A DNA stretch of 64,000 bases, from IMG/VR virus record IMGVR_UViG_3300028833_000053. One strand, given 5' to 3'. A program made the translations under genes and the position numbers. Positions within the stretch are counted from its first letter, which is position 1; the number at the start of each line of letters is the position of its first letter. The stretch is from a virus. Lineage: Duplodnaviria > Caudoviricetes. Below the pieces are notes generated by a model that made no database searches, was not told the DNA's origin, and worked only from the letters and a program-made list of their open reading frames with translations. Below are positions 9,050 through 64,000 of the stretch, piece by piece.

Positions 9050-9078
9050 AATGACCGCCCATCACTGGACGGCCATCT
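9050..9078 (-). terminator. Probable intrinsic terminator
   Basis: Imperfect hairpin atgaccgccca/tggacggccat just after the 9103 stop. Confidence 0.5.
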
Positions 9079-9102
9079 GTTCCTGGTTTCTGGATTCAGA
9101 AA

Positions 9103-12100
9103 TCAATCTTCTGAATCGTCACCCTTGCGCTTGATTTCAAGGTTCTGGCTCCAAGCCTCGCCATCCAATCCAAGCATGTCAAGTATTGACGGGAAGTCAA
9201 ATGCGAACGCATCGTTGATTCTCGTGAGGTTGTGGATTTCCATGTCCTCCAGACACTGCATCAGCAATTCCTCGTCAACCAGTTCAGATTCAAGAAGATC
9301 GCGGAGATTCTCCTTGCCCTGTCCCCACAGTATCTCGGACAGCTTCCATGGATCGTCTATTTCCTGCTCAATCGTCATTTCGCAGACGGGCTTCTTTTCC
9401 TCACCCGCAACCAGAGTCTTGGTGTCGCCACCCTGCGTCACTTGCTTCTCGCCATCCTTGACATCACCTGCCTTGACTTCATCGTTGTTCTCTGAAACCT
9501 CTTCGTACTTTGGCTCCAGAATCAACTCGGTGTAGAACTGACCATTCTCGTCCTCCCTTGGCTCGGACGCATCGGCAACCTTCCAGTTCTCCACATTTCC
9601 AAGCAGATAGTCGTTTGCCATCTTCATGACTTCATCGCGCTTGTCGGTGACGGTAAGAACGTCAACGTTCACAATGTCACTGCCTGACGCATAGGCATCG
9701 CACACAACCAGCTTCTTGGAACGGTCTTCCCATCCCTCTATGCTGTCAACCAACTCGTTCGCGTCAAGTTTCTCAGTCAAGTCCTTCCAGTCGGTTCCCT
9801 CGGCGGCCATGGCTTCCTCGTCCTCTCCCCCAACTTCCTCTGCCTCCTCTTCGGCCTCTTCCTTTGCAGCGGCCTGGAACGCCTTTTCGTCATACCCCGC
9901 CTTGTCAAGGATTTCCTGTCCCTCTTCGCTGAGGGTGATGTTGTCCCCAATCAAATGCACGTCTATTGCGTCGATTCGGATGAGTTCTTGCACGTCCTCT
10001 TCCTTGATCTTGCCACCGGAAGTCTGGATGAAGTTCTTCATTGAAGCACCATTCTTTCCAAGGGCTTTCAAGGAGGCGAGAACGAACAACTGTTGGTCGG
10101 TGATGTTCTTAAGGGCCCGGCGCTTGTGGAAGAACTCTTGAACGCCATGCCCAGACCATGCTCCAAAGAGAATTCCAAGCGGACCAAACGAAAGTCCACC
10201 CATCACGGCGCCGGCTGCAAGTCCAAGAACGTCTTTCCAAGCCTCTTCAACAAGCTGCTTGTCGTCGGTTCCCTCCAGTTCCACGGACGTTGGCTTGTCT
10301 GAATCCACGAACTCTCCCGTGTCCTCATACCTTTCAACGTCAAGTCCAAGCATATCCACCAAAGTTGCCATCTGACCTGAAAGCAGCGTGTTCAACTGCT
10401 GTTTTGAAATCATGTCACCCGACAATTCGTCGATTGCATCCATGATTTCCTCTTCGGTGCGCACATGGGAGTTGATGAGACTTGTAAGTTCCTTGTTTGC
10501 AATATCGTTGTCAAGAAGTTCAAGCACGTCCCAAACGTCATTTACGTCAACAGTCACCTTGGCTTCACCAACGGGTTGTCCAATGTCTTTCCAACCATCG
10601 TCGCCTTTCTTCAATTCGTTTTTCATTTTTGCATTTTCCTCGTTCAATTGATTCGTCGCAGGGGAGAACTTCACGTTGATTGCGCACATATCATCGTTGC
10701 CGGCAACCACGGTGTCATCCTTGTCCGCATATGAGAAACCGACAAACTTCCAACCTGCATTCTTCGCTATTGGAGCATATCTCTGTTCAACCTCGGCATA
10801 GGAAACCCTTGGCTTGTTCACGAGCACGTTCAATTCAACCGCCCTGCCATCGTCAATGTTGTATACGTCATAGTTCTCGAAGATGTCCCCTTTCAATGGC
10901 TTCATGGACATCAAATAATCATGAAATTGATTGTCATCAAGTGCGCCCCCATCCTCGTCAAACTGCTCTTCGTCGTCCTCGATTGGGTCTGAATCCCTGG
11001 GGCGTATTTCATGTCCGTACACCTCTACCTCCGAACCGTCCTTCTGTCCCAAGGTATACACGGCATCAAAGTCATTGGGATCTTCTGGCATTTCAAGAAT
11101 CTTCCAGACGCTCTCTTCGCCGCCATCGGGATCTGTCCAAATCACCCACATACCCTTCTCGAAGCCACCATCGTTATAGGAATTCTCGTCATCCCAATTG
11201 ATGCTCCCGTTGTCATCGTCGGATTCCCCAATGCGCATCCCCACGATGTCGTCCATGGAAACCCACTCTGAATCATCGCCCATATTTTTCTTTTCGTTTG
11301 TCATTTTAGAATTGTCCTCTTCTGTAAATTCAAATTCTCCTTGTTCGGTTTTCCACTTACCGGACTTGAAAAGTCTCTTCAACTTTGCAATGACCTCGCG
11401 TTGCTTGATTCCCCTTGAACCCAACATGCCAAACTTCTTGAGGAACTGCAGCACCTTGTCTGAATTATAATAGACCGCGCCCCAACCCGCGTTGTAGTCG
11501 GTGTTCTTTCCAGTCAAGGCATCCACAAGCTGCGTCTCGTAGTCGTTTCCATCCGGGTCGGGCCTGAATCCCATTGCCTTGACAAATTCCCTCACTTCGT
11601 TCTCGTCCATAGTTGATTCATTTACCTCCGCACCACAGTAGGGATTGACGAAATTTATCAGGTCTTGCACCTTGTTGGCAATCTCCCCAATCTTCCCAAT
11701 AGCGAACTTCATGTCGGCAAGCATCGCATCCTCATCGTCCTTCGTAGCCTGCTCATATTCCTCCGCCACAAGTTCCTCGTCAGTGGCAGCACCATCGCCG
11801 GCTTTCATGATTTCGGCCATCAGGTCATCCATCTTTTCGTTGAACTCGTCCATACGTTCCTGGGGAATCTTGCACTTGGACAATATCTCAAACACGGAAC
11901 GCCACCAATTGTACAACTTCTTCTTGACTTCCTCATCTTCATCGGACTTGCAAAGAACCTTGTTAAAGGTCTCCGTGGCGGGGACACCCATAGTCTGGGC
12001 AAGCGAGTTCAGAGACTCAACAAGTTTTGCCTAAAACTCTGGGGGACAATCCTCCAAGGCGTCGAACATCTGGGAGAACTCCAAGGAACTGTCCAATGTC

Positions 12101-12159
12101 TTGAGCTGGATTATGTTCTTGATTGAACCATCTATGGTTTCGGATACGATTTTCTTCAT
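9103..12159 (-). CDS. ~1018-aa acidic protein, probable virion internal protein
   Basis: ATG 12159, one TAG at 12031; GTAAATA at 12168-12174; multiple (L/V)NE sites; one Gly-rich hydrophobic segment. Confidence 0.6.
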
Positions 12160-12170
12160 GGTATCTCTAT

Positions 12171-12596
12171 TTACAATAAAACTTCCTAAACGCTCATCAT
12201 GGACGTGACGTATTCAATGAAATCGGGTCCCACGTTGCTGACCCTGCCGGGTTCAATGTCCTTGAACTTAAGCCATAGATTGAAATGCCCTGCCCAATAC
12301 CTTTCAATGCCGACCTTCGTGACGTATTTGGACAGACTGCAGTCAAACAGGGAAGCAATGACTTCACTTGACCTGTAGTGGCGGTGAGCGTCATCCCAAT
12401 CCTCGCCGGTTTTCACAATAACGGCATGACAAGGTTCCGGACGCAAGAGCAAGTTCCAAGTGTCCTTTATGCTCTCAATCGTTTGCTGCTCGGATTGATA
12501 TTCCAAGAAATAAAGGGAGGTTATGTTACCATTGGCTTCCGACACCCTACGGATTCCTGGGAACTTTGAAATGAATTCATTTTGCGCCATGGGCAT
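12171..12596 (-). CDS. Hypothetical protein, divergent member of tandem paralog array
   Basis: C-terminal SNVGPDF resembles TNITP motif; TAG at 12186 then TAA at 12171. Confidence 0.6.
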
Positions 12597-12600
12597 TCCC

Positions 12601-13098
12601 TCAACTGTTCAAGTATTTCTCAAACTCAATCCAAGGGTCGTCTGGAACAGTAAAGATTGGAACGCCCCAGTGGTTACGGTTTGCCACAATGTTAGCGTCA
12701 AGAGTCCTTTGCCCATCGGGATATGCAAGTTTGGAAAGTCCGCTCCTTGTCAAAACCACTTCAAGGAACTTCATCAACCTCGGAGTTATGTTGGTTTGAT
12801 GGTTGGGGGATTCCTCTATGACAAAGGTGTAGCCTATGATGGGACAGGGACTACCATTGAACGCCCTTATGTTGTCAATGGTGAAGTTATCATAACCTCC
12901 TACATAATGGCGGATATCCACAATGTTCTTCGTCATTGACCACTTGAACAAAGCCTCCATCATTTCGTCAAAACAACACTCTGAAAAACAATAACGCTCT
13001 TTTGTGTCGGATTCCACAACGGTAAGGATGAGGGAATCAGAGGTGTCGCCCAGGATGATGTCGCGCTTAATCCTGTCTATGATGTCCTGGTCAATCAT
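12601..13098 (-). CDS. Hypothetical protein, TNITP paralog
   Basis: ESPNHQTNITPR; ATGA coupling. Confidence 0.7.
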   Translation of the reverse strand: MIDQDIIDRIKRDIILGDTSDSLILTVVESDTKERYCFSECCFDEMMEALFKWSMTKNIVDIRHYVGGYDNFTIDNIRAFNGSPCPIIGYTFVIEESPNHQTNITPRLMKFLEVVLTRSGLSKLAYPDGQRTLDANIVANRNHWGVPIFTVPDDPWIEFEKYLNS

Positions 13099-13568
13099 GG
13101 CACGTCTCCATCTGCTTCAAAGTAGTCCCAAGGGTTCGTTTCCACAATTGGGGCAATTATGAATCTGCCATTCCAATTCAAGTAGTCCTCCATTTTCTGG
13201 GGCTTTGGTTTCAACGCCTCCACCAAAGTGTCCCTGGAGAAAGGGTCCGCAATTAGCCTGAAGAAGTCAATTATCCGAGGCGTGATGTTCGTCTGATGGT
13301 CTGACGATTCTAAAAGGGAAATCTCAAACGCACTCAAATAACCACACTTGCTCCCATAAGCGAGAATCTCCGAAACCCGCTTGGACATACTGAAATCAAA
13401 CATCTTCCCCACAAGTTCATCAATGTTGCTTATGTTGAACCTGTGCATGTCAGCGATTCCATTCTTCGTTAGGCATGTTAGGTATATGTCAAAGGTGTTC
13501 TCAAATTGGTAAACGCGCATTATGTCCTTAAAATACCCAACAATGTCCTTGTCCGTTTCAACATTCAT
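13095..13568 (-). CDS. Hypothetical protein, TNITP paralog
   Basis: ESSDHQTNITPR; ATGA coupling. Confidence 0.7.
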   Translation of the reverse strand: MNVETDKDIVGYFKDIMRVYQFENTFDIYLTCLTKNGIADMHRFNISNIDELVGKMFDFSMSKRVSEILAYGSKCGYLSAFEISLLESSDHQTNITPRIIDFFRLIADPFSRDTLVEALKPKPQKMEDYLNWNGRFIIAPIVETNPWDYFEADGDVP

Positions 13569-13909
13569 GACAGAACCTCCTTCCACCTGGATATTGCAGA
13601 CACGAATTCCGGAGTTATGTTCGTATGACCATCATTGGAATCCACAAGGTTGAACGAATAGGCGGACAGATAATTGCATCCTTTACCCCTCTGCATATGT
13701 CTGAGCGCATAGATGATGGTTTTTGTACGGGAAATGTCGAACAGAAATGGAATAAGCTCGTCATAGTGGTTGGGCAAAATAAATCCATGAGATGCCACGG
13801 TCGGTTCATGGCACTTGAACTCAAAGCACACAAGTGAACCATGCATCATGTGAAAAATGTCGTGGTTCATCTCCTCTGCGCCATGTTCCATGTCAAATGT
13901 GTATATCAT
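13565..13909 (-). CDS. Hypothetical protein, TNITP paralog
   Basis: DSNDGHTNITPE; ATGA coupling. Confidence 0.7.
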   Translation of the reverse strand: MIYTFDMEHGAEEMNHDIFHMMHGSLVCFEFKCHEPTVASHGFILPNHYDELIPFLFDISRTKTIIYALRHMQRGKGCNYLSAYSFNLVDSNDGHTNITPEFVSAISRWKEVLS

Positions 13910-14316
13910 TCGCTACATACCTTTTTGGAAAAACGTTCAACCATGTCGGCGTCAATGTTGCGCTCCTGACCATCTTCAAGCCTGTGAAGCCACACTGTGT
14001 ACTCTATGAAGTCGAAGCTCCTTGTTATGAAGACCCGGTAGAGGTTGAACTGAACCGACAAGTCCATCAACTCACCCATCAATCCGCCAACACCATCAAG
14101 AATGGCGTATCTTCCGGGAGCAACGTCCATATAGCAGTCAAAATTCATGGGTGGACGCTTCCCAACGGAAACATATTTATGTATCCCTGTCTCCCCCACC
14201 ACTCTGAACATCACGCATAAGGTGGAGGCAAGGTTGTCAGCCCACCAGGGTTTCTCGTTTTCGAGGAAATCCCAGATGGACATCGTTTCGGATTGATATT
14301 GGGAAATGTCAGTCAT
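13906..14316 (-). CDS. Hypothetical protein, probable divergent paralog
   Basis: LMGELMDLS and ERNIDAD align loosely with neighbours; ATGA coupling. Confidence 0.65.
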   Translation of the reverse strand: MTDISQYQSETMSIWDFLENEKPWWADNLASTLCVMFRVVGETGIHKYVSVGKRPPMNFDCYMDVAPGRYAILDGVGGLMGELMDLSVQFNLYRVFITRSFDFIEYTVWLHRLEDGQERNIDADMVERFSKKVCSE

Positions 14317-18722: not shown

Positions 18723-20198
18723 TTATACTTGAATGATGTCAGTGTTCTTAATCCCCCAAGGATAGCCAGACATTCCCTGTACGGCTTCACTGGTCTTTCC
18801 GCTGAACACAACACTATTCAATTCACCACACCCCGCAAATGCGTTTTCCCCAATAGTTGCAACACTGGATGGAATAACCAACGTTGTAAGTCCCGTACAA
18901 CCATAGAACGCCCTGTACCCAATGTTCGTCACGCTGGGTGGTATCGTTATGCTTGTAAGGGAACTGCAATTTTGGAACATCTGCGGACCAATTCCGGTAA
19001 CGGTGTCTCCAAGCACAATGTCAATTGCCCTCAATATGTTTGGAATGGACGTATGCGTAAGTTCACCGGAAATGTCCCCCGTCCAATCGGGCAGTTTTGT
19101 TTGAAGAACATATTGGACAACGGTTGTTGCACTGGTAATTTCGGGCGTTGGATCATCACCACCACCTTCCTCGCCACCATCGTCATTGCCGTCTTCCGCC
19201 ACCCATCTGTCATCCGGCTTCCACCACAACATTGAATTACCGTCGTTGAATGGAATCGTCAGCTTGAAATCGTATCTTTCATTTCCGGTGTTCAACGCCC
19301 TCAAATACTCTTTCGTTCCATATTCCCACAAAATATGTTCGCAATCGGACAATGAAACCACGCCTGTTATGTCAAGTTCCCCATTCGTGTAGAGCTTCAC
19401 CTTTATGTACTTCTCGGATGAACCGCCAATTGGCTTGAACAACTCGTAGAACACGTAATCCAAACGCCCAAAGGAATGCAGTTTGTTCATGGCATCTATG
19501 TAGCGGTCATTCTTTCCAGAGTCCATGTAGTCGTCTGAATCAAACTCGTCAAGGTTCTTGTGAAAGTCAAGTTCGTGGTCTTTCACCATTCCCTGCAACA
19601 TGTTTGCCAAATACTTTATGCGGGAATCTGCCAATGGGTTGTCTTGGTAATCGTCATCCCATTCATCAACTGATGCCATTCCAAGGTTGTCGGTCCAAGT
19701 CTTCGTCAAAATGTAGTCAACCCAATCCTAATCTGAATCCAAACTGCCAACGTTGTTGTCATGCTTCGAGATATACATCTGCATATTGTAGGATTCCTCG
19801 CCAACATCGTATTTTCCATCCAACCTTGCAATGTATTCCGTCATCCTTCCAAAATCACGGCGTCCCTCCCATATTTCATCGGCGGTAACTCCCAGGGCGT
19901 CCGCAACACGGTTTCTGTTGTCAAGAAGAAACTGCAACTTGTCTATGTTGTTCTTGAACATGACTTGTCCCTTGTCATATTCCCTGTACAATCCCCCACG
20001 ATATTGTATCTGGCGTATTTGCTCGTTTCCAAGAATCTCACCACCCGTTATCTTGTTCAATGCCGTGGAGTATCTTTGGAACAAACGGGAAAGGACGTAG
20101 TTGATTGACCGCATGTTCATGGACAACCCCGTAAGGGATTTGTTGAATTCCTCACGCGACTCTTCCTTCTTTTGCAATTCCTTTTCGCTCAGTGCCAT
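18723..20198 (-). CDS. ~491-aa protein with C-terminal BspA-type leucine-rich repeats
   Basis: Two track ORFs joined at TAG 19728; LTSITIPPSVTNIGYRAFYGC repeats; GTAAATA at 20223-20229. Confidence 0.8.
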
Positions 20199-49883: not shown

Positions 49884-51008
49884 TTAGACCTCGTGGGATT
49901 CGTTGAGGTTCTTGCCGAACTTCTCACGCCACTCCTTGTAGAGCGGATGGCGCATGAGGTTCATCACGGCCACGGAGGGCTTGATGCGCTCGGTGCCAAC
50001 TCGGGCGGCGGTCATAGCCATCGTTGCGAACGCCGGGGGCAGACCCATCGAGATGCGGAGGAAGCCATTGACTCGGTTCGCGGTGTCCTTGTCGTCCGTA
50101 CCACGCCAGAGGTGGTACACCATCGCGGAGGTGAGCGCGTACTTGAGGTCGTCGCGGGTCGGGATGACAACCTTCTTCTTGGGATCGGTCATCATGTCAA
50201 GCACGTTGTCCATCTGAGCGGACAGCTTGTAGAACTCCATGAACTGCTGCCCAGCGGGGACACCAACCAGACCATACACGGCCTTGCGGAGCAGGGTCTC
50301 GTTCTTGAGAATCTTGCACATTTCGGAAACGCGCTCCCAAGAACGGGGGGTCGGGAAGCCACGCTCAAGGTTCTGGTCATCCACGGAGAGCAGAAGCTGC
50401 GGCTTGAAGTTGATGAAGCCAACCACGGTCGGGTGGATGTCATGCGAAACGGCCCACGTCACCCAGTCCTCGGCATTCGCCTCAATCTCAAGGTGCATCA
50501 TGCGGTTCGCAAGAGCGGAGGACATCGTGGTGGAAACTGCGCGGTCGCAAGAGCGGTTGCCAGCGGCCACAATGAACCACTTGGACGGAACCTTATAGAC
50601 GCTGCCACCACCAAGCTGGCGGTCAAGGATAAGCTCGTAGGAGGCAACCTGCACGTCCTTGGGCGCGGCGCTCAGCTCGTCAAGGAAGATGATGCCACCC
50701 TTCTCGTTGTCGATGGGGAAGATGTCAGAGGGAAGCCACTGAACGTTGTGCTTCTCGGTATTGGGAACAGGGAGACCACGGATGTCAATGGACTCCATCT
50801 GGGCGAGGCGGACGTCCACGAAGCCAACGCCCATCTCCTTTGCCAGAGACTTGACGATGGTGGACTTGCCAACGCCAGGTGCGCCCCACACCATGACGGG
50901 CGGAAGTTTGGAAGAGGTATTCTCGTCAGCGAGAATAGTCTCGATTGAGGAACGCAGGATGTCCTGCAGTTCGCTTGCGTGTACCACGTTGTGCGTGTCG
51001 ATTGCCAT
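49884..51008 (-). CDS. MoxR-like AAA+ ATPase
   Basis: WGAPGVGKS, DIRGLP, IFLDE, AAGNR, ALANR, PTPRSW; AGGAG RBS. Confidence 0.9.
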   Translation of the reverse strand: MAIDTHNVVHASELQDILRSSIETILADENTSSKLPPVMVWGAPGVGKSTIVKSLAKEMGVGFVDVRLAQMESIDIRGLPVPNTEKHNVQWLPSDIFPIDNEKGGIIFLDELSAAPKDVQVASYELILDRQLGGGSVYKVPSKWFIVAAGNRSCDRAVSTTMSSALANRMMHLEIEANAEDWVTWAVSHDIHPTVVGFINFKPQLLLSVDDQNLERGFPTPRSWERVSEMCKILKNETLLRKAVYGLVGVPAGQQFMEFYKLSAQMDNVLDMMTDPKKKVVIPTRDDLKYALTSAMVYHLWRGTDDKDTANRVNGFLRISMGLPPAFATMAMTAARVGTERIKPSVAVMNLMRHPLYKEWREKFGKNLNESHEV

Positions 51009-51250: not shown

Positions 51251-54200
51251 TCAATATGTGGTTTCATACACGTTGTTTATCTGTTCCTTGTCCTTGGAAA
51301 TGCCAAAAAGCATCTTTGATATTCTCCATGCGCAGAACCTCTCGGGCTCGGGCAAAGAACCAATCACCTTGTACTTGTACCAAGCAATCAAATCAAGGTT
51401 GTCGTCACGTTCCTCGAAATTCTCAGCCAGATTATACCACGGGGGAATTGCATAAGCCGAACCAACACGGCAACAATATTCCCACTGAGCTTCTGTCGGC
51501 AAGTCAAAGTTTATTCCGCCAGTCACGCCAGAGCTCCACCTCTTTTTCCTCCATGTGGTTTTTGTCAATCCTTGCTTATTGTCCCTTGCATCCATCAAGT
51601 ACTGCATCAACGGACTGCCACCATACTTATCGTACTTTCCATTTGCAAATCCATTCGCCTTTGCTTCATATCCAGAAACGGAGAGTCCATCACCCAATTT
51701 ATTTTCCCACCAAAGTGTATTGTAGTAATTTCCCTTTGCCCAGGTTTGATCACTCCTGTCGGGACCGCCACGACCATCACCTTCATAACCCGTGTTCACC
51801 CCGTATATTCGTGTCTGAGTTTGGACAACTACCTTGGAATTCAATATGTCCATAAAGGACATTGGCGTTGAAGGATGTTCAATCAACTGGAATTCATCTC
51901 CATTGGCTGACATAATATAGCCCTTTGTAGTAGCCTCTGCGGGCGGTGAGGAATAAAGATCCCGGGCCGAACGCACTGCGTTATAGCTCGCATAGTAAAA
52001 CGGACGTGTGTCCTCCAATGGGTTGTATATTCCCCAGTTGACCAATTTTGTTACGCGCTTTTCCTCCACTTCTGTCAATGGAACCGACCTGTATCCATTT
52101 GCGGGTGAAGAACCACCGGACGATGAATAGCCACCCTCTGAACCGGTGTCTCTCGGTGAAAGAGCAGCCAAGTCGCTGATTTGATCCTATGTCAAAATCA
52201 CCTTGCCGTTCTTGTCCTTTCCAGTCTCAAGAAGGTATTTCCATTCTTCATTCTCCCACACGCAAACATACTTCCAATAGGATTTTTCCATCTTCTTGAA
52301 ATTGGTGTCACCGATTGAACCCGGATTGCCTACTGCTTTCGCCAGATTCGCGCGGGCGTAACCCTTCATTAATGCCATGTCAGGAACCATGTTATATGTT
52401 GGGGTGTAGCCAGATTCTCCTGGCCGCTTTCCTGTTGCATCAACAATCAACTGATACGTTGTCACATAGCCAGCCTCGCCGGGCACTTTTCCATTTACAT
52501 CCTCTATGAGTTCTTTAGTCATCGGAACGGCACCACCAGAATTTTTGTGGAAACCATACACGTAGCACCATTGGGCAATCGTCAGTTCAAACGGGTCAAT
52601 GAAGAAGTGCTTGTTTCGGAAATACTTTGCGCGTTTCTTGTATGTGGTGACATATCCGGCGGCACCGGGTGACCTGCCACTGCTGTCTTTTCCCTTGGCA
52701 AGATCTCCAAACTTGTTTCTCTCGTATACCCAAGGTTGAGCAGCATCAGAAACATCTGGATTGTAGAAATCCTTCGCCCTTTCAATTGATGTGTACCAAG
52801 ACGGCCATTCCTTTTTGTTCACTGGAATGTTTGGATAGTTCCTTTGATATGAACCGCCGTTTCCAAGGGTGACATACTTGTAGTCGTCCCTTGCACTGTC
52901 AACTATGGATTCAGCGTCCCTATACTTTCTCTTGTTCGGGTCGGTTATCAAGTCATAGTCGCTTGCGTGGCTTCCCATCACGAAGTTGTCGTACATTTCA
53001 CCTGAAATTTCCTCTATGCGTGAAAGGATTATCTTGGAGGTCTTGAATTCGTCATCCGTGTTGATCCTTGCGCTGTCCTTGAATTTCATCGGAAACTTTC
53101 CAGGCTGCAACGTCAAGAGCGCCGCCGCGTCATCACTCAATCTACTGTCAATTCTCTTGTTGTATTCAGTCAAGTCAGGAAGAAGGTCTATGACGGCGTA
53201 CTTGTATGAGAATTTCTTTCCGTCGGACAAATTTCCAACACCTGAACCCGACATAAAGGATTCATAGAACACCTCCTTCAATCCAGTCACGTCCATCACG
53301 GGGATTGACTTGACAATCACGGTGTTTTCCTCGTCCTCGTAATCGGTGAGGGAACGTCCAGAAGAATTGGTCATTTCGTCAAAGACCTGATGTTGCCAAC
53401 GGTATCCCATCAATATCGGCAAGGCTTTCTTGAAGTCGGTGTAGAACGTTTTCACGAAATTGACCAACTTCGTGTGCGACCATATGTCCTTCGCCTCACT
53501 GTACGTTCCAACGTTTTTATCGGATTTCGTGGAATTCGCAATGGCGATTTTCGTCAAAGCGAATTTCCAATACGGTGGATAGGCGGGGCCGGCCCATGCG
53601 TCCGTTATTGTGGCATATGCCCCAACGTCGCCGTACCTGGTCTTGAATTCCGATGCAGGTGCGGGATTGCAAGTCAACACCTTGTTCTTCGTGGCGCAAA
53701 CAGCGGCACTGGTTATCAAGCCAGAAGAGGTCTTGGCAATGTTTTCCTGATGGACTATTATCTTCATATGTCCTGTGACAACTTCCCTTTGATCCTCACC
53801 TTCTCCCTCCATATGTCTGTATGTAATGGTAATATAGTCCAACGGTTCCTTTGTCCAGGCGTATTTGCAATCTATCTCGGTTGGCGGGGAATAATCCCTA
53901 ACCTTAAGCGACCGAATCCAACTTGTGCCAGAAGTTGAGGTCGCTCCAGAACCATACACCGAAGGACTCAACGCGGAACACATCTTATTGATGAACATTG
54001 GATAGCAAGTTCCTGCAAAATTGGATCCCGCAAGAGTCCAATCTTCGGGCCACTCGCCAGTTTCTTCGTTCTTTTTCTTCTTGTACACCACGCACAGGCA
54101 AACGGCCATAAGCTCTATGGATTCCTCCGTCAACGTGTACTTGCCCATGCGCCTAAACGGATAATCTTCAGTTTTCTTCCTTCTGTTTTTGTCGTCCCAC

Positions 54201-57200
54201 ACGGTCAATGGACACAGATGCTTGTCTATGAATTCACGAGCCTTTGCCGAAAGAATGTATTTCGGTTTTTCGTTTGTGTGATCTCCTCTTCTGTTTGCCA
54301 CGCCATCCTTTCCTTCAGGCAAGGTGCCGGATTTTGCATAGTCATATATGATTTTAGCCCAAGTATTCGGTATGTTGTAACTGGCGGCTGCTCGGGTCAA
54401 ATCAGATTCACCACCGCTCGTCACCCAACCTTCTTCGTCAGCCTCGCCATGAGGAAACACGCTTTGCACTATGTAGTCCCCCATAAAGCCGGCGAACTCG
54501 CCATCGTGGGCATGGTATTTCTAACGCCAACTGCCCTCGGCAAACGTCTCGTCTCCTTTCTTTAGCGTGCGGCAAGCGGGAAGACCCATAATGAAGAAAT
54601 ACTTGTCATAATAAGCAATCTACGTGTCGTCTTTTCCGGGGGTTGGACGGTCCTCCGCCCTTGGAATAATGACATCCTTGCTCATTGTTACTCCATTCCA
54701 AGTACCGTCTTTTTTTCCAACAAACGATTTCCATCCGTGGCGTGTGGCAAACACCATGTTGGTGCTGGTATATGGGTTTTCAAGTCCGAATATCGTTTCG
54801 AGAATACTTGCGTCTTCTTCATTGCATACGACATTCTCTATTGCGCGGGCGTCGTCCATCTGAAGGGCGTTGTTGGACATCCTCAAGATTTTCCATGTCA
54901 AAGGTTCACCGTCCTTGAGGTATTTGGAGAACCATCCCCTCATTTCAGAATCGTCGATTACAACCTAATCCATATCCTTGAACAAACGTGGTTCGTTGTT
55001 CATGTAGAAGGACTTGGCAACTTCAAGGGCGTTTGCCGCAGTAACTTCTCCCGTATCATACAACGGCGTTGGCGCGTTTGCATCGCTTACGAACATGTAT
55101 GAATTCACGGGTTGATCTGTCAACGCCATCGTGTTGCGCAATTGGAAATATCCAATCGTCTTCAACCAATCATAACTGACATAGTGCTTCTTGTCGATGC
55201 TGGAGTTTCCTGGCATCTGTCCACTTTCATACAAAGTTGACTTTTGTGTTTCCGTGAGAAGTTTCGTAGATTCCATTCCGTCAAACGGATATGTTTCCTT
55301 TTGCATATCGGCGGAAGACAAGGATCCAGAAACCTTCAAGTCATCCGTGACAACACTTCCTGCGCTCCATTTGACCGTTACGGACAGCTTATGTATTTCC
55401 TTCTCTATTTCATTGAACTTTCCAGTATTTCCATCAAGCAAGGACGACACGGCGGTCATGGCATTATACTCTTCAGACCCAGAATCCCTCGGGTTCAATC
55501 CAACATTATAGCAATAAGTCTCAAAGGTGTCCTTCAATGATGCGGCATTTCCACGCATCATTTGCAGGCAATACGGGTCTGGCGGAACCAAATCTCCCCC
55601 GAAAACGGACGTGCCACCATAGAATTGAAGCGAGGTCTTACCCGGTATTCCAGGACTGACAAGAATTTCCTTTGACTGCACACCGCCAGCTTCAGAATAG
55701 GTGGTGTCCATTTCATTGTCATATTCATTTGCAAACACGAACACCAACCTCGGAACTTTCTTTCTGAAAAGATAGCCCAATCCCCGGTGGTTTGGATGTC
55801 CATAGAAATATCCCTTTCTTATCAACTTGGACATCATGCGGCAAGTAGGTTCGCAACCGGCCCACCAGTTAGAGAGAACACCCTTGTCACTGACGATAAA
55901 CGGAAATTCAAAGTTTTCTACACCTTCATCCGTTGGGTCATAGGTGAAGAACGGAACTTCCTTGCTGAACGCCTCTTGGCCGTCTTGCGCTTCCACTGTC
56001 CACTTGTCCGTCGTTCCATTCCACGTCATCCCCTGATAGCTGGCGAAGTATCTCTGCCAATCTCCAAATTCGCCAGTTCCCTGCTTGCCCTCCAATTCAT
56101 CCTGCAATGGAACGTCTGACTCTCCGTCAACATGTACACCAGCCATTTGCTTGGTTATTCCGCCAAAAGTCAACGGCATCGGGCGAAGTTCACTGTCAAC
56201 TTCAGTACCGCCCTTAATCCAAGCTGGAACACCACAGAACAAGTTGAACTTCTTTGACAAGGTATAGTAGTAAACCGTAACGTCCGCGTCCTATGGATAT
56301 TCAGGTGGCGGGTCTTTCTTGTTGTGAACCAAAATACCTTGCTCTCCAACATAATATGTATGGGTTCCTGAAACCTCAAGGTTGTACACATATCCCAATC
56401 TCAACCCAACATCAATGCTGTCTATGGTATGCCAAGTGCCATCAGGACGCAACAACTTATCTGAAACCTTCAAATCCTGGGCCGTAACCCAATCTGTTTT
56501 TTCATCCCTGTTGACGTAGAACGGATGAACTCCGGTTGCCTCGATAGTTTCTTCTCCGACTTTTATGGTGAAAATCTCCCTGACAAGCAAGTGACGCATT
56601 GTCTTCACCACCTTGCAGTATTGATTTTTGCCGGAAACTTCATCATAGGAAAGAACCGTGTCACCCTCTTCAACCTTGTCAATGTCCTTCCGTCCATCAA
56701 GCATTATGACCTTCGTTCCAGCAACAAAACAGTCGCCGCCTTTGTTGTGAACCAACGCGCCACGTTCACCGACATAGTACGTATGCGTCCCTGAAACTTC
56801 AAGGTTGTACACATATCCCAACTTCAACGCAATGTCAATGTTGTCTATGGTGTCCCATGTCCCATTGGGGCGCAGCAGCATATCTGAAACCAACAAATCC
56901 TGTGCTTTTACCCATGACACTTCCCCACCCCTATTGACATAAAATGGATGTACTCCCGTTGCCTCAATTGCCTCATCGCCGATTCTTATGGTGAAAATCT
57001 CCCTGACAAGCAAATGCCTCAACGTTTTCACCACCCGACAGTATTCGTTTTTACCCGTGGTTTCATTATAGGAAAGAACAAGTTCACCTTCCTCAATCTT
57101 GTCAATGTCCTTTTCCGTGCCATCCGCCATAAGAACTTTCGTGCCCGCGACAAAACAATCCGTCGAGCCCTTATTGTGTGCAAGAATATGTTTTCTTCCG

Positions 57201-60200
57201 ACATAATAGTTGTGGTTCTTCGTGACTTCAATGTTGAACACGCCGGTTGACAACTTCTGCGATGCAATCTTGGAAATGCGGTGCAAACTTCTGTCATGGA
57301 ACATCACAAGGTCTCCGACAACAATCTCGTCCGCCCTAATCCAGGATTTCTTGTCCTTGCGCATGATGTAGAACCTGTGGTTTCCAGTGACATCCAATTC
57401 GTCGCCCTCGATGGTGAATGTATAGATGTCCTCGTCAACATCGTGCGTCATCGTCTGGGCAACTTCGCTTATTTCATTCTTTTCCTCTTCTTCGTTATAC
57501 GAAACAACTTGGTCTCCGACGGAAACATCCTCTATGTTCTTCAAGGAACCGTCGGACATCTCCACCTTTGTTCCGGCAACGAAACACGAATAACCGCCTG
57601 AACCACCCGTGTCGCTTCCTCTTGATTTCAGGGGTTCCTGACTCTGAATCTCCCCATCGAACCCAAAATCTCCTTCATCGCCATATTCAACCTGTATGTC
57701 ATCTTCCTTGTATTCACCAGACCACTTGTCAAGTACGTTGGACTTGTAAGACCACTCGGATTCAAGGTTCTCAACCAAGCTCCCGTCTATGGACTTGGCT
57801 GAAGAACCACCTCCCTCGCTGCCCATCATCCAGCAATTTTCATAGTAGTTCTGGAAGAACGTCTCAAACCCACTTGGCTTTCCATCCGCCCCCGTGCCCG
57901 AACCGAATGCCCCGGTTGTCCAATGCTTTTTCGATTCCGCACAACCCCATCCGTAAGGTCGGCCTTCACCATTACCTCCTCCCCAGTTTGTATATGGCGC
58001 ATTATCAGCGCCAGAAAGGTAATAGTGGTACGTTGTGCTGCCATATCCCCTTTTCCAGTTGTAGTAGCTGGGCATTCCATCGTAACTGCCATACTTTATC
58101 TGCGTATATTCAGCACACTTATGTGCGCACATGAACCTGAGCGTCGGACCAAGGAACAACGCAGAACCAACATGGCAAATGTCATATGTTCCCGTTTCAC
58201 TATATCCCGCAAACATGCGCACTATGTCGGTTGCGGATTCAATCATCCTTGTTATCTGGTTGTTCTGTGAAGCGGAAGCGTCAAAGAGGAAGAACAAGTC
58301 AACTGGACTTGTGTGGAACTCAAACGACGAACCCTCGTTTTCCGCACTGAATATCATGGAAGGTCTGAAACCAACGTTCGCCTGCGTTGCATATTTGGAC
58401 TTGAACCTGTCAGGAGCAAGTTCCTCACGGGAACTGCATATCACCTTTCTGCAAAGTTGATCGAACGCTCCACCCTTGATTACCTTCTTCGTATGCTCAC
58501 CGACAGTGACAATCGGGTTGACTTCTGGATTACCCTCTGTGCTGCCCGGACCACTTTCCTTCTTGATGGTGGCGTTCCAATCGTCCCTCACCCATTCCCA
58601 AACGTTTCCAAGCATGTCGTACATCACCAATTTGGTTGACGGGGACAACAACTTCCCTACACGGTGGATGAAAAGCTCGTTGTAAGACCATTCGTATCTC
58701 CAATAGAACTGGGGAACAACTTGGAACGTTATGGACTTCATGTCCTTCACGGTAAGGTCGTGATGGGACTTGTTCATACCTTCCATTGAAGTATAGACTG
58801 GGAACAATTGCTTGTTCAACACGGTCTTGCTGATTTTGCGAATCCACTTTTGCCTGCTGTCGTTCAAGTAGTATTCAGACTCGGGAAACTCCTAATCCAA
58901 ATCCAATGTCTTGGGGAATTGAACTGTGGTGTCGGACAACAATTGCTGATAAACAAGACTGTCTCCAATTATGTAGTTGGCGGGAACATCCTCAAACTTG
59001 AATCCCTGGTATATCCTTGCTCCCTCTGGAACAATGTCGTCCTCTTCATCTTCTATGTACGCCTTGTAGCCCTGATCATAGGGGTCGCCCAGCGGAACCT
59101 TCAACTCTCTCGGCCTCATACCATCGTGGTCGTCGTCAACGCCATCCAGGGTAGTGACTCTGAAATTGTCGTGGCTGTTCAATATCCTCTCATACGTCAA
59201 ACTGGCCCGCGCCATTTCATAGTCGATGGCATGCCATTTCACATGAGCCAAATCTTCGTCAAATTCCTCCTTCGGCCTCATCTTCCATGCGGTATACTTG
59301 GCTATAAGCTCGACCCTTCTTGCCTCTATCTCCTCGTCAGTTGGCTGAGGTATGTTTCCTGTGAACATGACGAAAGAAGCCTCGTGTTCCCTTGCGTTGC
59401 GTTCAAGGACGTGGGAAATCTCAATGAAGGAGTTCGTCCAGTGGACGTAGCAAGGCGTTCCATAATTCGTGGAAGAGCCATCAACGTCGCCAAACGTGTT
59501 CCTTCCATTTGCCATTATGTTGCCTTTCCACTTGTTCTGCTTGAACGTCCTGTATATGCTTCGGACAATCTTCTTGGTGTACTTCTCCAAGGCTTGCCAC
59601 GCTGCAAGATCGCTTCCCAACTCGCGGCGCTTGTTCTTGAAATACTTTATGTAGGTATAATGGCGTACCACGTTCCACAAGTTCCAGGTCATCGGCCTTT
59701 CATGTATGGAATCAAGAACGTCCGTGTTCATGTTCTCTGGAATCTGTTTTTTCCTGAAGTCACCGTCTCCGTGGCATTGCTCACCAAAATAGTATTTGTC
59801 CGCCGTTGGGTCTTCGTGTTGTGGCGTACCAAAGGCGTTGCTCATGTGGTGTATCTTCCACTTCTCGTTCGTGCCGGCGCAATTGGGGTCAAACACGCCC
59901 TTGTAGCAGTTTCCAGAATTGTCGGTTGTCAACACCGTGCCGCCATAGTCGCGTTTTGCAAAGTCGGTGCCAATGGTGTGCTGCACGGCGTGCCACTTGT
60001 GCTCCGACAGGAACGTAGGTGTCCTTCTTTCCTCCTTCGTGTCGGAATCAACCTCAACATACTCGTCTTGTTTTTCGTGCGCGTTGGAATAGCAATAGCC
60101 ACCCTCTTCATAGTTGAGCTTCGCACTGCTGATTCTTCCATAGCAGTCAACTGTCGGTCCGTTGTTCTAGTCGCCTCTGTTCTCCCACCAAAACACGTAG

Positions 60201-63200
60201 GGCATAATGTCCTCAAGTTCAACCACCTGGTTCAAGTCCTCCAACGGAGAAACCATCGTAATGTAGAACCACACGGAATCTTCGTCGAAATCGTCTATTG
60301 CGTGGGCTTGACTGAGGTTGTACTTGTACTTCAACCTGTCGGGACTTGCCTTTCGTGCTTCGTCATATACGTACTTGTTCACGGTCAAGTCAACGAATGA
60401 ACCGCCCTTGTCGTAATCGTCAACCCAATCCTGGTATGGGAACCTGAATTCACCAGAACCACCACTTCCAAAATCGTATTGAGTGCCATACATTCCATTG
60501 AACTCACCGTCCTTGACCGTAAGTTGCTTCAACGTCTGATATGGAATGAGCTTGGTGAACCTCTCGGCCAGCGTCTTGAGGTTGTTCTCGTTGTGGTGTC
60601 TCTTCGCCAAGAACTCGCAAGCGCGAACAATGTCGCCGAACGCAGGATCTTCCGTGCGTCCCTCATTTGACTGCTCGAATATGATTCCATTTATGTGATC
60701 GGAACTCTTCGGCACCTTGTCCGTCTGATAGGTGTCAAGCATGAAGCTGTACAACTCGCTGTTCTGCTTTATGTTGAAGAACGGAATCAAGAAGTACGTC
60801 CAATCCCTTTGGTTGTAGAGATAGTACCAAGTGCTTTTTATGTTGTCAACCAAAAAGCCGCTCTTGTCATCCTCGTCCTCGGGATTCAACTTCACCCATT
60901 TCTCGTAAACGCTTCTCTATGTATCGTCAAACACGTCAAGATGGAAGTCGCGGTCCATCTAAAGGAAGTTGTAGCCGCCAATTCTGTTGTACTTGTCATA
61001 GGACGACGGAACTATTATGGAGTCCTCGTTGTACTCCATGTTCACCATCGTCTTGGAAGGAATGGTACACCATCCAAAGACGCCATATCGGTTTTCAACG
61101 TCCGCCTGATACTTCGTGTCAGCCGCCATGTCGCAATCGTTGAATATGTCCCTTACCTTCGGCATTATGATTGGACGGTACTTCTTCACAATGGAAGTGA
61201 ATGTCTGCAACTAATCCTGACCCCTGACTATCTCGTTGTAGGTTCCGTCGTTCTTGTGTCCCAACCTATGACGCAGGAAATCGTTTGCGTCAACCGGGGA
61301 CTGGATGGTGGAGTTTTCGTAGAGACAAAGCGGACGTATGTCATAGTAGTTCTGCTGATCGTCCAAAGTCGGCGTCACGTTCGTGGAAATGTTGTCGTCT
61401 ATGGTCTTGTTCCTGTCGGTTGTGTCGTTCTTCCTCTTCTGGACGCTTTGAAGGGTTTTCCTGTAGTCATAGTAGTAGTAAAGATCGTTATAGTGTACTG
61501 CGTTCGTGTTGTATTCACCAATCAACTCGCGGTTCACTGGAGTTATTCTCCAATTCAACGCCCGTGTCTTGTCTATCCTGCAAACAAGCCTGCCATCTTC
61601 CACTTGGTTTGCCGTGTGGAAGTTGGAGAACTTGAATTCAATTGCGGGTTCAAAGGAAATCCACTTCACGTCCCCATTGAAGCACACCACCTGGTAATTT
61701 GAAGGGGTTCCGCACACAACATCGCCTGAATTAGTGCAGATTATTTCATCCAACGCCTCGTCGGCCTCACCCAATATCTCTCCATACCACCAATCTGACT
61801 TCTCGGGCACGTCTATCTTGAGGAAATACTCCTTGTGCGCTATGTCTATGTTTATCTTGAACAACGCCTTGAGCAAGTTGACAACATCAACTATTTCAAG
61901 CATCGTCAAGGGCATGAAGTCGTTTGCACTTGACTTCAATCTGTTCAACAAGCTGAGGAACGGACAAGCGGAGAATTCATCAAATCGGGATTCATCATAC
62001 TCCCTGGGATTCAACCCAATCAACGTGCAATAGCACTTACCCTCTGAATTCACCTTGTCTATGTCTGGATGACCAGACCAATACTGGCAAGTTCCCAATG
62101 TATGATCTGGTTCATCTTGAACACGGGGGTCAACCAAGTACGAACTAACGCCATCCAATTTGTCCTGTTCGTCACCATTCAAAGGAACAACAACCTTGTC
62201 GTATACTGCAACCAAAACGGATTCCGAAAGTATGGTCATGGAGGACGTTATGTTTCCACTTACCAAACTCCAATACCTGAACACATACTGGGTGCAAGAA
62301 TCATCGCCATCCTTTACATTCGTTTCCAAATGCAGGTGGAATGAAGGTATGTGCTGATTCTAAACAACATCCTGCCACTTCTCGGCCTCGTGTCCATCCT
62401 AATCTATGTACTTGAACGTCACGCGGAAGGCAGTTTCGCCACCTGCATGAATCTTCGCGGTGATATACCTTTGATATTGCTCAGCGTCGGACTTTCCATC
62501 GCAGATGATGTACTTGCTCAAGTTCTTACCTTCGTCAAAACCTTGGTTGTCACCTTCCGCAGACACGCCGGTGTTCGCCAATGGCTCGGTTCTGTCATCG
62601 CAAATTATGGCACCGCCACGTCCCTCGATGCCCGGAAGCACATCACCTTCCAAACTGCTCCAACCAAGAAACTTGAGGTTTGGATTAGAAAGTTTGGGGT
62701 TAAACGGAGGATATACCACCGTGTTCACTTCCTTGTCAATCAAGACATCGCAATAAGGCTCGTCACCAACCTTGAACGTCAATATGTCATAACCCAACGT
62801 CCAATTAGCCTCCAACACCACAATAGGCGCAGAATCCACCCATTGCTGTTGAATTCCAAACTGATACTCGTCATAGCATATGCCATAGGAACCGCCAATT
62901 GAATATTGCCAATTGGCGAACTTGTGCGTCTGCCAACGTTCACCCGTGGCGTTCAACCCAGTTGGAGAATCCAAAGGATAGTCGAATTCCCAGAATCCAG
63001 TTGGGGAATCATGGTATTCAAAGCGAAGTTTGTCCCCAGATGGTCCCGTGAAAGTGCATTTTGGCAAATTCACAAGTTCGTTGGCGCGGACCGTAATCGG
63101 CCTCATTTCGCCCGAACCACCATCGCCGGGTCTGAACTTCACGATATATTGCGTGTTCCAAACTGCATAAAGGCTCAATGTGTCGGAATCATGGAAGTTC

Positions 63201-64000
63201 CACTTCGTCAACACGTCATCCAAGTCAATGGACGGCACCTGGGCAAACCTGTCCGTGGAAAAACCAAGCAGTTCATATTGCACCGTCAATCTTGAAGATG
63301 CGTCCAAAGTCTCGTCCGTGTCCGTAAACGTTGGCTTGTTGACCAACTTCACCTCGGAAAGATCCAATTGGAAATCATCACGTTCCGCTTCAAAATGAAT
63401 TGACTGTGGTCTGTTCAACAAGTCGCGCTTGAATGAAGATCCAACCGGCACCTCGACAACCCCACCAGTCCATTGCATGTAGCTGTTCAAGTTGAAGTTG
63501 ATGTATATGTCACGGTGACGGTATCCAACATCCGCCGCGGCACGGCTATTCAACATTCCCTTTACGGGAACCGGTTCGCTTTCTTCAAAGGAAGGTGCTT
63601 CTTCAACCACAATCTCCTTGGGTGCGGAATCGCTCTCCCGGCACAATGGGCAAAGATCCCAATTCTTCAACAACCAACCCTGTCCCGTTTTCGCCAAGAT
63701 TTGAAGAAATTGCTCCAATATCTTGCGTTCATCCGTGTCTAGTCCAGAAGTGCCAGGATTCCTCCAATATTGCTCCACTTTCGCCAAATACCTCAGGTAA
63801 CCATTTGGATCATCCATATCGTTTTCGTCATAGTACACAAAGGCATTGGGGTTTTGGGAATGCTTCAAGGTGTCGGTTGTAAGGTACTTGTAGCCACTGT
63901 CGATGTTGATATGGCGTTGAAACACCTCTCCGGTTGTTGACTTGAACTGCAAATACTTGTAGAGACGCGAAAACACTCGCTCAATCACGATTGCACATTG
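51251..64000 (-). CDS. Giant multidomain protein (at least 4249 aa, 5' end outside window): InlB-B-like repeats, FGE-sulfatase halves, vWA, three Hint domains
   Basis: Ten track ORFs in one frame; each gap read by hand contains only TAG (62399, 62360, 61211, 60959, 60917, 60167, 58892, 56291, 54965, 54620, 54521, 52187); first TGA at 51251. Confidence 0.85.
56321..57586 (-). repeat. Three tandem Hint (bacterial intein-like) domains
   Basis: CFVAGTKV..TGxHxF..VxNxEV..HxYYVG..HN at 57173-57586, 56744-57157, 56321-56731. Confidence 0.93.

Follow-up and report, generated by a model that had tools for sequence, protein, structure and literature searches.

We analysed a stretch of 64,000 nucleotides (hereafter the window) from a virus of the Caudoviricetes, IMG/VR record IMGVR_UViG_3300028833_000053. 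Its minus strand carries most of a giant gene, which yields an open reading frame (ORF) of approximately 4,826 amino acids only if the codon TAG is read as sense, and within this gene lie three Hint domains arranged head to tail. The cassette had been pointed out in an earlier note made from the letters of the window, which placed it in a giant recoded phage protein and took it for a device of self-cleavage or ligation; the size of the ORF and its dependence on TAG bear out the placement. We describe the three units, the domain into which they are inserted and their variation among related phages, and then weigh how the cassette might be processed.

Three tandem Hint units

Translation with TAG as glutamine confirmed the tandem triplet at positions 57586-56321 of the window, minus strand (Table 1). 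Each unit is 137-138 amino acids long, starts with CFVAGTKV and ends with HN, and the positions C1, T67/H70 (block B, TxxH) and H137/N138 are invariant across the three. KGSTD separates the first unit from the second and KGGD the second from the third, after which the sequence continues with KKDPPPEYP. The residue after the domain (+1) is consequently Lys in 3/3 cases and Cys, Ser or Thr in none. All these details were exactly as the earlier note had given them. Hints 2 and 3 share 76% identity in protein and DNA alike, as against 40% amino acid and 55-57% nucleotide identity of Hint 1 with either of them, in agreement with the claim that copies 2 and 3 are close duplicates and copy 1 is divergent. 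A homing endonuclease had been said to be lacking. Units of 137-138 amino acids offer no space for one, and the antisense ORFs across the cassette had no match to any Pfam family, and we therefore rejected the idea of an endonuclease concealed on that strand.

A search of the recoded translation with profile hidden Markov models (HMM), proposed in the earlier note, identified the Pfam family PT-HINT (PF07591) over three stretches (168.8 bits, cut-off 27.7; E=1e-49), ranking above Intein_splicing and Hint. In a scan of the whole 433,895-bp genome the individual copies scored 39.6-78.8 bits, and no further Hint domain was found. When a profile of the three copies was compared with solved structures, the top match was 2LWY, a bacterial intein-like (BIL) domain of C. 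thermocellum (E=1.5e-18). The AlphaFold2 (AF2) model of the precursor contained three complete Hint folds, with a predicted local distance difference test (pLDDT) score of ~87-97. Foldseek with these Hint models also returned 2LWY as the best match (E=4.5e-11, template modelling score 0.92, root mean square deviation (rmsd) 1.8 Å, 36% identity), followed by BIL2 of the Tetrahymena BUBL locus and next by mini-inteins and Hedgehog. Judged by their defining sequence features, the three units are A-type BIL/PT-HINT domains; having neither Cys/Ser/Thr at +1 nor an endonuclease, they do not qualify as canonical inteins, which is the class assignment that the earlier note had proposed.

Assembly integrity and selection

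The genome is a metagenome assembly, in which tandem copies might result from a mis-assembled repeat. However, L009, an independent assembly from ENA, contains the same three Hints in the same order with 96-98% nucleotide identity. Furthermore, the copies of the window are only 76% (2 versus 3) or ~55% (1 versus 2 or 3) identical in their DNA, comparison of which revealed no long exact repeat, and the reading frame is unbroken through the whole cassette. Because the triplet recurs in L009 and because copies 2 and 3 differ to this extent, the probability of an artefact is practically negligible.

The ratio of nonsynonymous to synonymous substitution rates (dN/dS) was 0.12 between Hints 2 and 3, with a dS of 1.28, and 0.04-0.22 for each Hint copy between the window and L009. 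All three copies are under purifying selection. The dS value also makes the duplication of Hints 2 and 3 an old one; a recent duplication, or unequal crossover between identical repeats, was rejected on account of this value and of the lack of long exact repeats. Selection had been deduced in the earlier note from the retention of the catalytic residues, and the substitution rates support it. They are no proof of a function for the host protein, because an insert obliged to leave a folded domain would show the same pattern.

These data also bear on the idea that the Hints are inactive relics which stay on as beads or spacers once the protein is mature. That the cassette is dispensable (see below) would suit such relics. 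Nevertheless, every catalytic position is intact in the three copies and in the 97% relative, the dN/dS values (0.04-0.22) are low, and Cys1 and the terminal HN are ~100% conserved over 235 related units, so that we consider inactivity very improbable.

The putative host domain

The cassette is predicted to sit inside a von Willebrand factor A (vWA)-like domain, and this assignment is moderately supported. The insertion site is a low-complexity, Gly/Ser-rich stretch with a pLDDT below 50, the length of which varies among orthologues. A flexible tether of ~80 residues precedes the cassette, and the next host strand begins ~10-20 residues after it. In the AF2 model of P0009, an orthologue that has no Hint, the insertion site is a low-confidence stretch separating two better-defined blocks. 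On the N-terminal side, the D-A-S-A-S of 'DLFFLFDASAS', corresponding to the DxSxS of the metal ion-dependent adhesion site (MIDAS) after beta1, is invariant in 16 homologues, and the N-E-x-D-N motif that follows strand LVFVF in the C-terminal flank, where the MIDAS calls for an Asp after beta4, is likewise invariant.

Prediction of a complex between the N-flank and the C-flank gave an ipSAE of 0.77, against 0.00 for the best of 3 controls; the mark applied is passed by 58/80 solved complexes and 2/110 mismatched pairs, counts that are only approximate with custom alignments. The runs agreed in at least 67% of contacts, with a partner pLDDT of at least 52. This pass may in part reflect resemblance to structures already solved, since both flanks come from a single chain and the vWA fold is abundant among known structures. 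The contacts of lowest error joined DLFFLF with LVFVF and CHVG with GVPAW, which is the pairing of the beta4-beta1-beta2-beta3 order of a vWA/Rossmann-like sheet.

The Foldseek matches listed for the host domain were almost all vWA or integrin I domains, with weak E values of ~0.1. VIA-align against such domains gave Z scores of 5.5-6.8 over 105-124 aligned residues (best: Z 6.8, rmsd 3.5 Å, 121 aligned), below the value of 8 under which fold identity is unsafe; the aligned range, model residues 164-640, extends on both sides of the insertion site. The alignments to the alphaL I domain stop at residue 240/241, adjoining Asp239, which we take to be the MIDAS aspartate of that domain. Sub-threshold HMM matches were to integrin I domains at the MIDAS strand (E 0.35-1.7). 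The host protein had no match to Pfam VWA, and a profile search with the C-flank matched no solved structure. vWA proteins usually have a MoxR-family AAA+ ATPase as their partner, and a gene of this family adjoins that of the vWA-like protein, the genomic pairing to be expected.

Variation of the cassette among orthologues

Exact-word locus searches of IMG/VR with the N-flank and the C-flank returned no relatives, and orthologues of the flanks were obtained by protein searches, from other large phage contigs. Comparison of the Hint copy number in homologues, as the earlier note had recommended, showed that the orthologous megaphage proteins contain 0, 1 or 3 Hints, all at one Gly-rich site. 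A single Hint is found in P0004/L010, P0005, P0006, P0055, P0056 and P0062, and none in P0009, P0010, P0014, P0015, P0016, P0018 and P0031. The latter run uninterrupted through the Gly-rich site into the conserved '...GVP(A/T)W...' segment.

The protein of L010 is 92-100% identical to that of the window over 4,567 amino acids, except for the cassette, where one Hint of ~55% identity takes the place of three. The DNA of this Hint is ~65% identical to that of Hint 1, with near-identical flanks, and an origin of the one-Hint allele by plain loss of two units was rejected on these grounds. In addition, the tether of the one-Hint allele (L010:598-14299) contains a poly-Ser insertion (PSSSSSSTSSGDP) directly ahead of the Hint. 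Remodelling in L010 affects the cassette at either edge, in a protein of 4,567 residues that is otherwise near-identical.

In a tree of the conserved N-flank, the Hint-less P0009 and P0010 branch from within a clade of Hint bearers (support 90/89). A second tree, built from 241 Hints, places Hint 1 with the Hints of L010 and P0005 and pairs Hints 2 and 3 with each other, their closest outside relative being the Hint of orthologue P0056. By its position in this tree, Hint 1 is part of a resident lineage together with the Hints of L010 and P0005. The triplet therefore consists of a resident Hint and an added second lineage, which was later duplicated. As far as these sequences indicate, alleles of different cassette content circulate among near-identical phages, and the cassette is a dispensable, recombining and hypervariable insert, possibly a selfish one. 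In the orthologue fragment P0062, a Ser replaces the +1 Lys after the single Hint (…LVHN/SKDN…, the slash marking the end of the Hint).

Hint arrays in other proteins

Near-full Hints were counted in the best 150 of 23,063 matches from an exhaustive protein search, a ranking that favours multi-copy proteins and hence shows the existence of arrays and not their frequency. Among these matches, 55 proteins had one Hint, 37 had two, 27 three, 9 four, 3 five and 1 seven. Arrays of 2-7 Hints with junctions of the type HN/K-Gly(n)/C occur in many unrelated giant proteins of phages, archaea and bacteria, including a subtilase-PKD protein, laminin-G proteins and Tim44-like proteins. The spacers between adjacent Hints are mostly 1-6 residues long, KG, KGG and KGGG being typical, and internal junctions typically read K-Gly(1-4).

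Among 235 related complete Hint units, none deviates at Cys1 or at the terminal Asn, the penultimate His is present in 233/235, and the block-B Thr and His are conserved in 93% and 96%, respectively. The +1 residue is Lys in 160/235 units (68%) and Cys, Ser or Thr in 6%.

Tape-measure-like phage proteins of the PhageMin_Tail type (P0051, P0057, P0060, P0118, P0127 and P0136; 3,000-3,950 amino acids) contain 1-3 PT-HINT domains in poly-Gly linkers, with junctions of the form GGGGGG/CF.AGT...AHN/KG(n). Apart from the orthologues, these proteins have the Hints most closely related to Hint 1. A tblastn search of the GenBank phages yielded nothing beyond distant single Hints and ordinary inteins; the match in a Ruminococcus phage was a single Hint in a hypothetical protein of 564 amino acids. 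We found no description of back-to-back Hint/BIL arrays or of Hint domains in tape-measure proteins in the literature, a weak negative because the primary BIL papers lay outside the search.

Host gene and genomic context

The complete giant ORF extends from 135537, the position of its ATG, to 150017 of the genome and contains 12 in-frame TAGs. None of these falls within the Hints, and the identity of the amino acid inserted at TAG therefore leaves the finding of the Hints untouched. At two conserved TAG columns the homologues have Gln in 8/8 and 10/10 cases, and the tape-measure and large terminase (TerL) genes of the window also contain several TAGs. On this sequence evidence the genome is that of a TAG-to-Gln recoded phage (genetic code 15). 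It is an IMG/VR megaphage genome of 433,895 bp, terminally redundant (127 bp), with 46.6% GC and 36 tRNA genes. Its sole tRNA(CUA), located outside the window (G000:C1:410487-410576), is 90 nt long, with an extended variable arm and U1 paired with A72. A long variable arm is the type II tRNA shape of Ser, Leu and bacterial Tyr tRNAs. Because of this arm and of the U1-A72 pair, the tRNA by itself gives no clear indication of the amino acid that it carries; ARAGORN detected no tRNA-Tyr or tRNA-Gly in the genome.

Table 1. Features of the cassette, its host gene and the adjoining gene (window coordinates)
Feature	Position	Strand	Description
Giant recoded gene, part within the window	51251..64000	-	One open frame with TAG as sense; continues beyond the window
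FGE-sulfatase-like C-terminal half	58361..58627	-	YDMLGNVWEW...; directly before the N-half of the vWA-like domain
N-half of vWA-like domain	57824..58342	-	beta1 with DxSxS in 'DLFFLFDASAS', alpha1, beta2 'CHVGSALF'
Gly/Ser-rich tether	57587..57823	-	Predicted disordered (pLDDT below 50); upstream of the cassette; site of 0, 1 or 3 Hints
Hint 1	57173..57586	-	138 aa, P0002 residues 2135-2272; Cys1, TGNH, terminal HN
Linker KGSTD	57158..57172	-	From the Lys at +1 of Hint 1 to the Asp at -1 of Hint 2
Hint 2	56744..57157	-	138 aa, P0002 residues 2278-2415; Cys1, TGVH, HN
Linker KGGD	56732..56743	-	Between Hints 2 and 3
Hint 3	56321..56731	-	137 aa, P0002 residues 2420-2556; Cys1, TGVH, HN
C-half of vWA-like domain	55709..56290	-	Hairpin with 'GVPAW', strand 'LVFVFANEYDN'
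FGE-sulfatase-like N-half, truncated	51254..51541	-	NFDLPTEAQWEY...; extreme C-terminus, conserved in orthologues
MoxR-type AAA+ ATPase gene	49884..51008	-	AAA_5/AAA_3, phrog_1297; adjoins the giant gene downstream, upstream of the large terminase

The giant gene has ArdA, NrdD and glycosyltransferase genes on one side and the MoxR-type ATPase and TerL genes on the other; a tape-measure protein, TerL and an SbcC-like nuclease are also encoded in the window. In this setting the designation of the giant product as a virion protein, used in the earlier note, is a supposition. The order giant gene - MoxR-type AAA+ - TerL was found in both long orthologue contigs examined (320 and 430 kb), whose giant ORFs contain 7-12 TAGs, and ArdA and NrdD lie upstream of the giant gene in one of the two. 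The MoxR-type ATPase gene is syntenic in L009 and L012. The region upstream of the giant gene (L011:7388-8188, 9060-11405 and 11717-14167; genome 125387-132166) encodes an HNH/NUMOD3 homing endonuclease with 4 in-frame TAGs, a 781-residue protein with a duplicated ArdA anti-restriction domain at its end and the anaerobic ribonucleotide reductase NrdD, the last of which suggests an anaerobic, gut-type host. A 491-residue protein with BspA-type leucine-rich repeats (LRR_5, E=1e-20) is encoded at 18723-20198 (-) of the window. Such repeats are typical of gut anaerobes.

Most of the giant protein had no match in PHROGs and Pfam, except for pieces resembling the formylglycine-generating enzyme (FGE). 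The two FGE-like halves occur in reversed order, the C-half 2,300 residues ahead of the N-half, with no C-half behind the latter. L009, L010, L012 and L013 all keep this arrangement. In the folded protein the halves might make up for one another and so clamp the C-terminal 1,690 amino acids at both ends.

Comparison with known systems

The units resemble the A-type BIL domain of C. thermocellum (2LWY) in Cys1, the block-B TxxH, the terminal His-Asn and the fold, in their length of ~138 amino acids without an endonuclease or a +1 nucleophile, and in their location, a variable part of a large protein that is not essential. They differ from it in lying head to tail with spacers of 4-5 residues and a conserved +1 Lys, and in that their host is a phage protein, in which they are inserted within a folded vWA-like domain.

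The BUBL locus of Tetrahymena thermophila (PDB 6Y75/6TMM; Dassa et al. 2004 and Chiarini et al. 2021, both as cited in PMC8616854) likewise has a BIL-type Hint recurring within one polyprotein and a chemistry that ends on a lysine amine, as far as that source describes it. There the BIL domains alternate with ubiquitin-like cargo, whereas the Hints of the window are adjacent, with no cargo between them, and BUBL BIL2 is only 26% identical to them in sequence. On the strength of that account, the BUBL polyprotein is the nearest described counterpart of back-to-back Hint arrays.

With canonical class 1 mini-inteins the units share the Hint fold, Cys1, TxxH and HN, as well as the sporadic occupancy of one precise site and purifying selection on self-removal. 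In contrast to these, they have no Cys/Ser/Thr at +1, they occur as several adjacent copies, and their site is a poorly conserved Gly-rich loop and not a conserved active-site motif. Polymorphic toxins contain Hints of the same Pfam family, for which Zhang et al. (2012, PMC3482391) proposed an autoproteolytic release of the module located downstream. However, no toxin family was detected with Pfam and PHROGs in the 1,690 amino acids downstream of the cassette. This part is 92-100% conserved between strains, unlike a polymorphic tail, and the gene that follows the giant gene encodes a MoxR-type ATPase, not an immunity protein. The PhageMin_Tail tape-measure-like proteins have 1-3 Hints in poly-Gly linkers but are a different host protein.

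Processing of the cassette

BIL domains give predominantly cleaved products, a bias ascribed to the missing +1 nucleophile (PMC7664689; PMC7765530). The cassette of the window would thus probably, though far from certainly, mostly cleave itself, so that free Hints and a nicked protein of two chains would remain, the latter functionally like the Hint-less orthologues. In this scheme three active A-type BIL domains would be placed in tandem in a long flexible loop of the vWA-like domain. As expected from the family, Cys1 would convert the upstream peptide bond into a thioester by an N-S acyl shift, and the terminal Asn would cyclise and cut the downstream bond. With Lys and not Cys/Ser/Thr at +1, no transesterification would follow and the thioester would chiefly be hydrolysed. 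The six scissile bonds lie in series, and a cut at any one of them would sever the chain. The products would be an N-terminal part of ~2,720 amino acids ending in ...GGYS, a C-terminal part of ~1,690 amino acids that has Lys as its first residue, and short peptides besides as many as three released Hints of 15 kDa.

An array of this kind would be strongly biased towards chain break, because an intact chain would require e cubed, e being the ligation efficiency per unit. The cut protein would stay together as a nicked two-chain complex, given the prediction that both halves of the vWA-like domain contribute to a single beta-sheet. This nicked end state would functionally equal the Hint-less orthologues, and the insert would for that reason be tolerated and its activity kept: an unprocessed insert within a fold would presumably harm the host protein. 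The earlier note had proposed a programmed multi-step cassette of autoproteolysis or non-canonical ligation. Cleavage or such ligation is indeed to be expected from the BIL family, but a programmed design in several steps does not agree with orthologues that have 0, 1 or 3 Hints, nor with a near-identical strain that has one diverged Hint. The location within a vWA-like domain and the wide occurrence of such arrays go beyond what the earlier note contained.

Several points weigh against predominant cleavage. Plain hydrolysis has no need for a lysine, and yet Lys is the +1 residue in 68% of the 235 related Hints; its conservation hints at a role of the lysine amine in ligation. The continuous chain of the Hint-less orthologues fits a splicing insert equally well, and the Hint of P0062, to judge from its +1 Ser, could splice canonically. 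Furthermore, the vWA assignment has middling scores (Foldseek E ~0.1, HMM E 0.35-1.7, Z below 8), and the whole processing chemistry considered for the cassette is deduced from membership of the family.

The foremost alternative is non-canonical splicing, in which each Hint would excise itself and the flanks would be rejoined without a +1 Cys/Ser/Thr, three rounds restoring a continuous chain. The thioester might be attacked by the alpha-amine freed on Asn cyclisation. Dassa et al. (2004) reportedly put forward this route for A-type BIL domains. The attack might also come from the epsilon-amine of the conserved +1 Lys, resulting in an isopeptide link. Splicing is favoured by Lys at +1 in 3/3 copies of the window and in 160/235 related Hints, with K-Gly(1-4) at the junctions, and by the rank of Tetrahymena BUBL BIL2, a lysine-ligating domain, as second-best structural match; according to section 2.4 of PMC8616854, BUBL BIL2 forms an isopeptide bond between the C-terminus of the N-extein and a lysine epsilon-amine. 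The position of the cassette within a fold that is continuous in orthologues, and its patchy, intein-like distribution, also suit a harmless, self-removing element. On the other hand, BIL domains are reported to yield mostly cleavage (PMC7664689), inefficiency would multiply over three successive ligations, and ligation would be needless if the halves of the split domain hold together non-covalently, as predicted. On balance we think splicing rather unlikely.

A bolder proposal is that K-Gly(n) tandem arrays form a distinct, hitherto undescribed Hint class with the epsilon-amine of the near-invariant +1 Lys as the nucleophile that resolves the upstream thioester, in the manner reported for BUBL BIL2, or else act as a multi-shot, ATP-independent cross-linker. 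In the first case each unit would be excised and an isopeptide-linked, branched host chain left behind; in the second the array would form staples within the giant protein, or between it and a partner, during assembly of the megaphage or infection. We regard this as quite unlikely.

Alternatively, the thioester of the N-terminal fragment might be passed to a lysine or another nucleophile on a separate molecule, such as a small molecule or a protein of the host or of the phage particle, and so covalently anchor a fragment of 2,700 amino acids, by analogy with BUBL BIL2 or Hedgehog. A precedent exists in a BIL domain that conjugates its N-extein to lysines of other proteins, as reported in PMC8616854. 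The flexible tether of ~80 residues ahead of the cassette and the adhesive or ligand-binding type of its flanks (vWA-like, FGE/C-type-lectin-like) would be in keeping with such a conjugation. Against it, a Hint-less orthologue would be incapable of the reaction, yet keeps the rest of the protein. In addition, one C-terminus needs one thioester, and only that of the first unit would carry the large fragment. Conjugation in trans thus appears highly unlikely, and we continue to favour predominant self-cleavage with a nicked host protein.

Conclusions

Much less work has been devoted to BIL-type Hint domains than to inteins, and what they do in nature continues to be debated. The domain type of the cassette is itself known; what is new here is an optional, strain-variable triplet inside a phage vWA-like domain. 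Near-identical strains with one or three units, together with Hint-less relatives, constitute a natural experiment on copy number. Our observations suggest that some giant proteins of megaphages, as well as giant tape-measure-like proteins, are matured by built-in self-cutters and not by a prohead protease. Should Lys-directed re-ligation prove true, it would represent a notable new chemistry for this Hint subfamily; if the conserved lysine does participate, isopeptide bonds could be formed in a new way without ATP, which would also offer protein engineering a compact tool.

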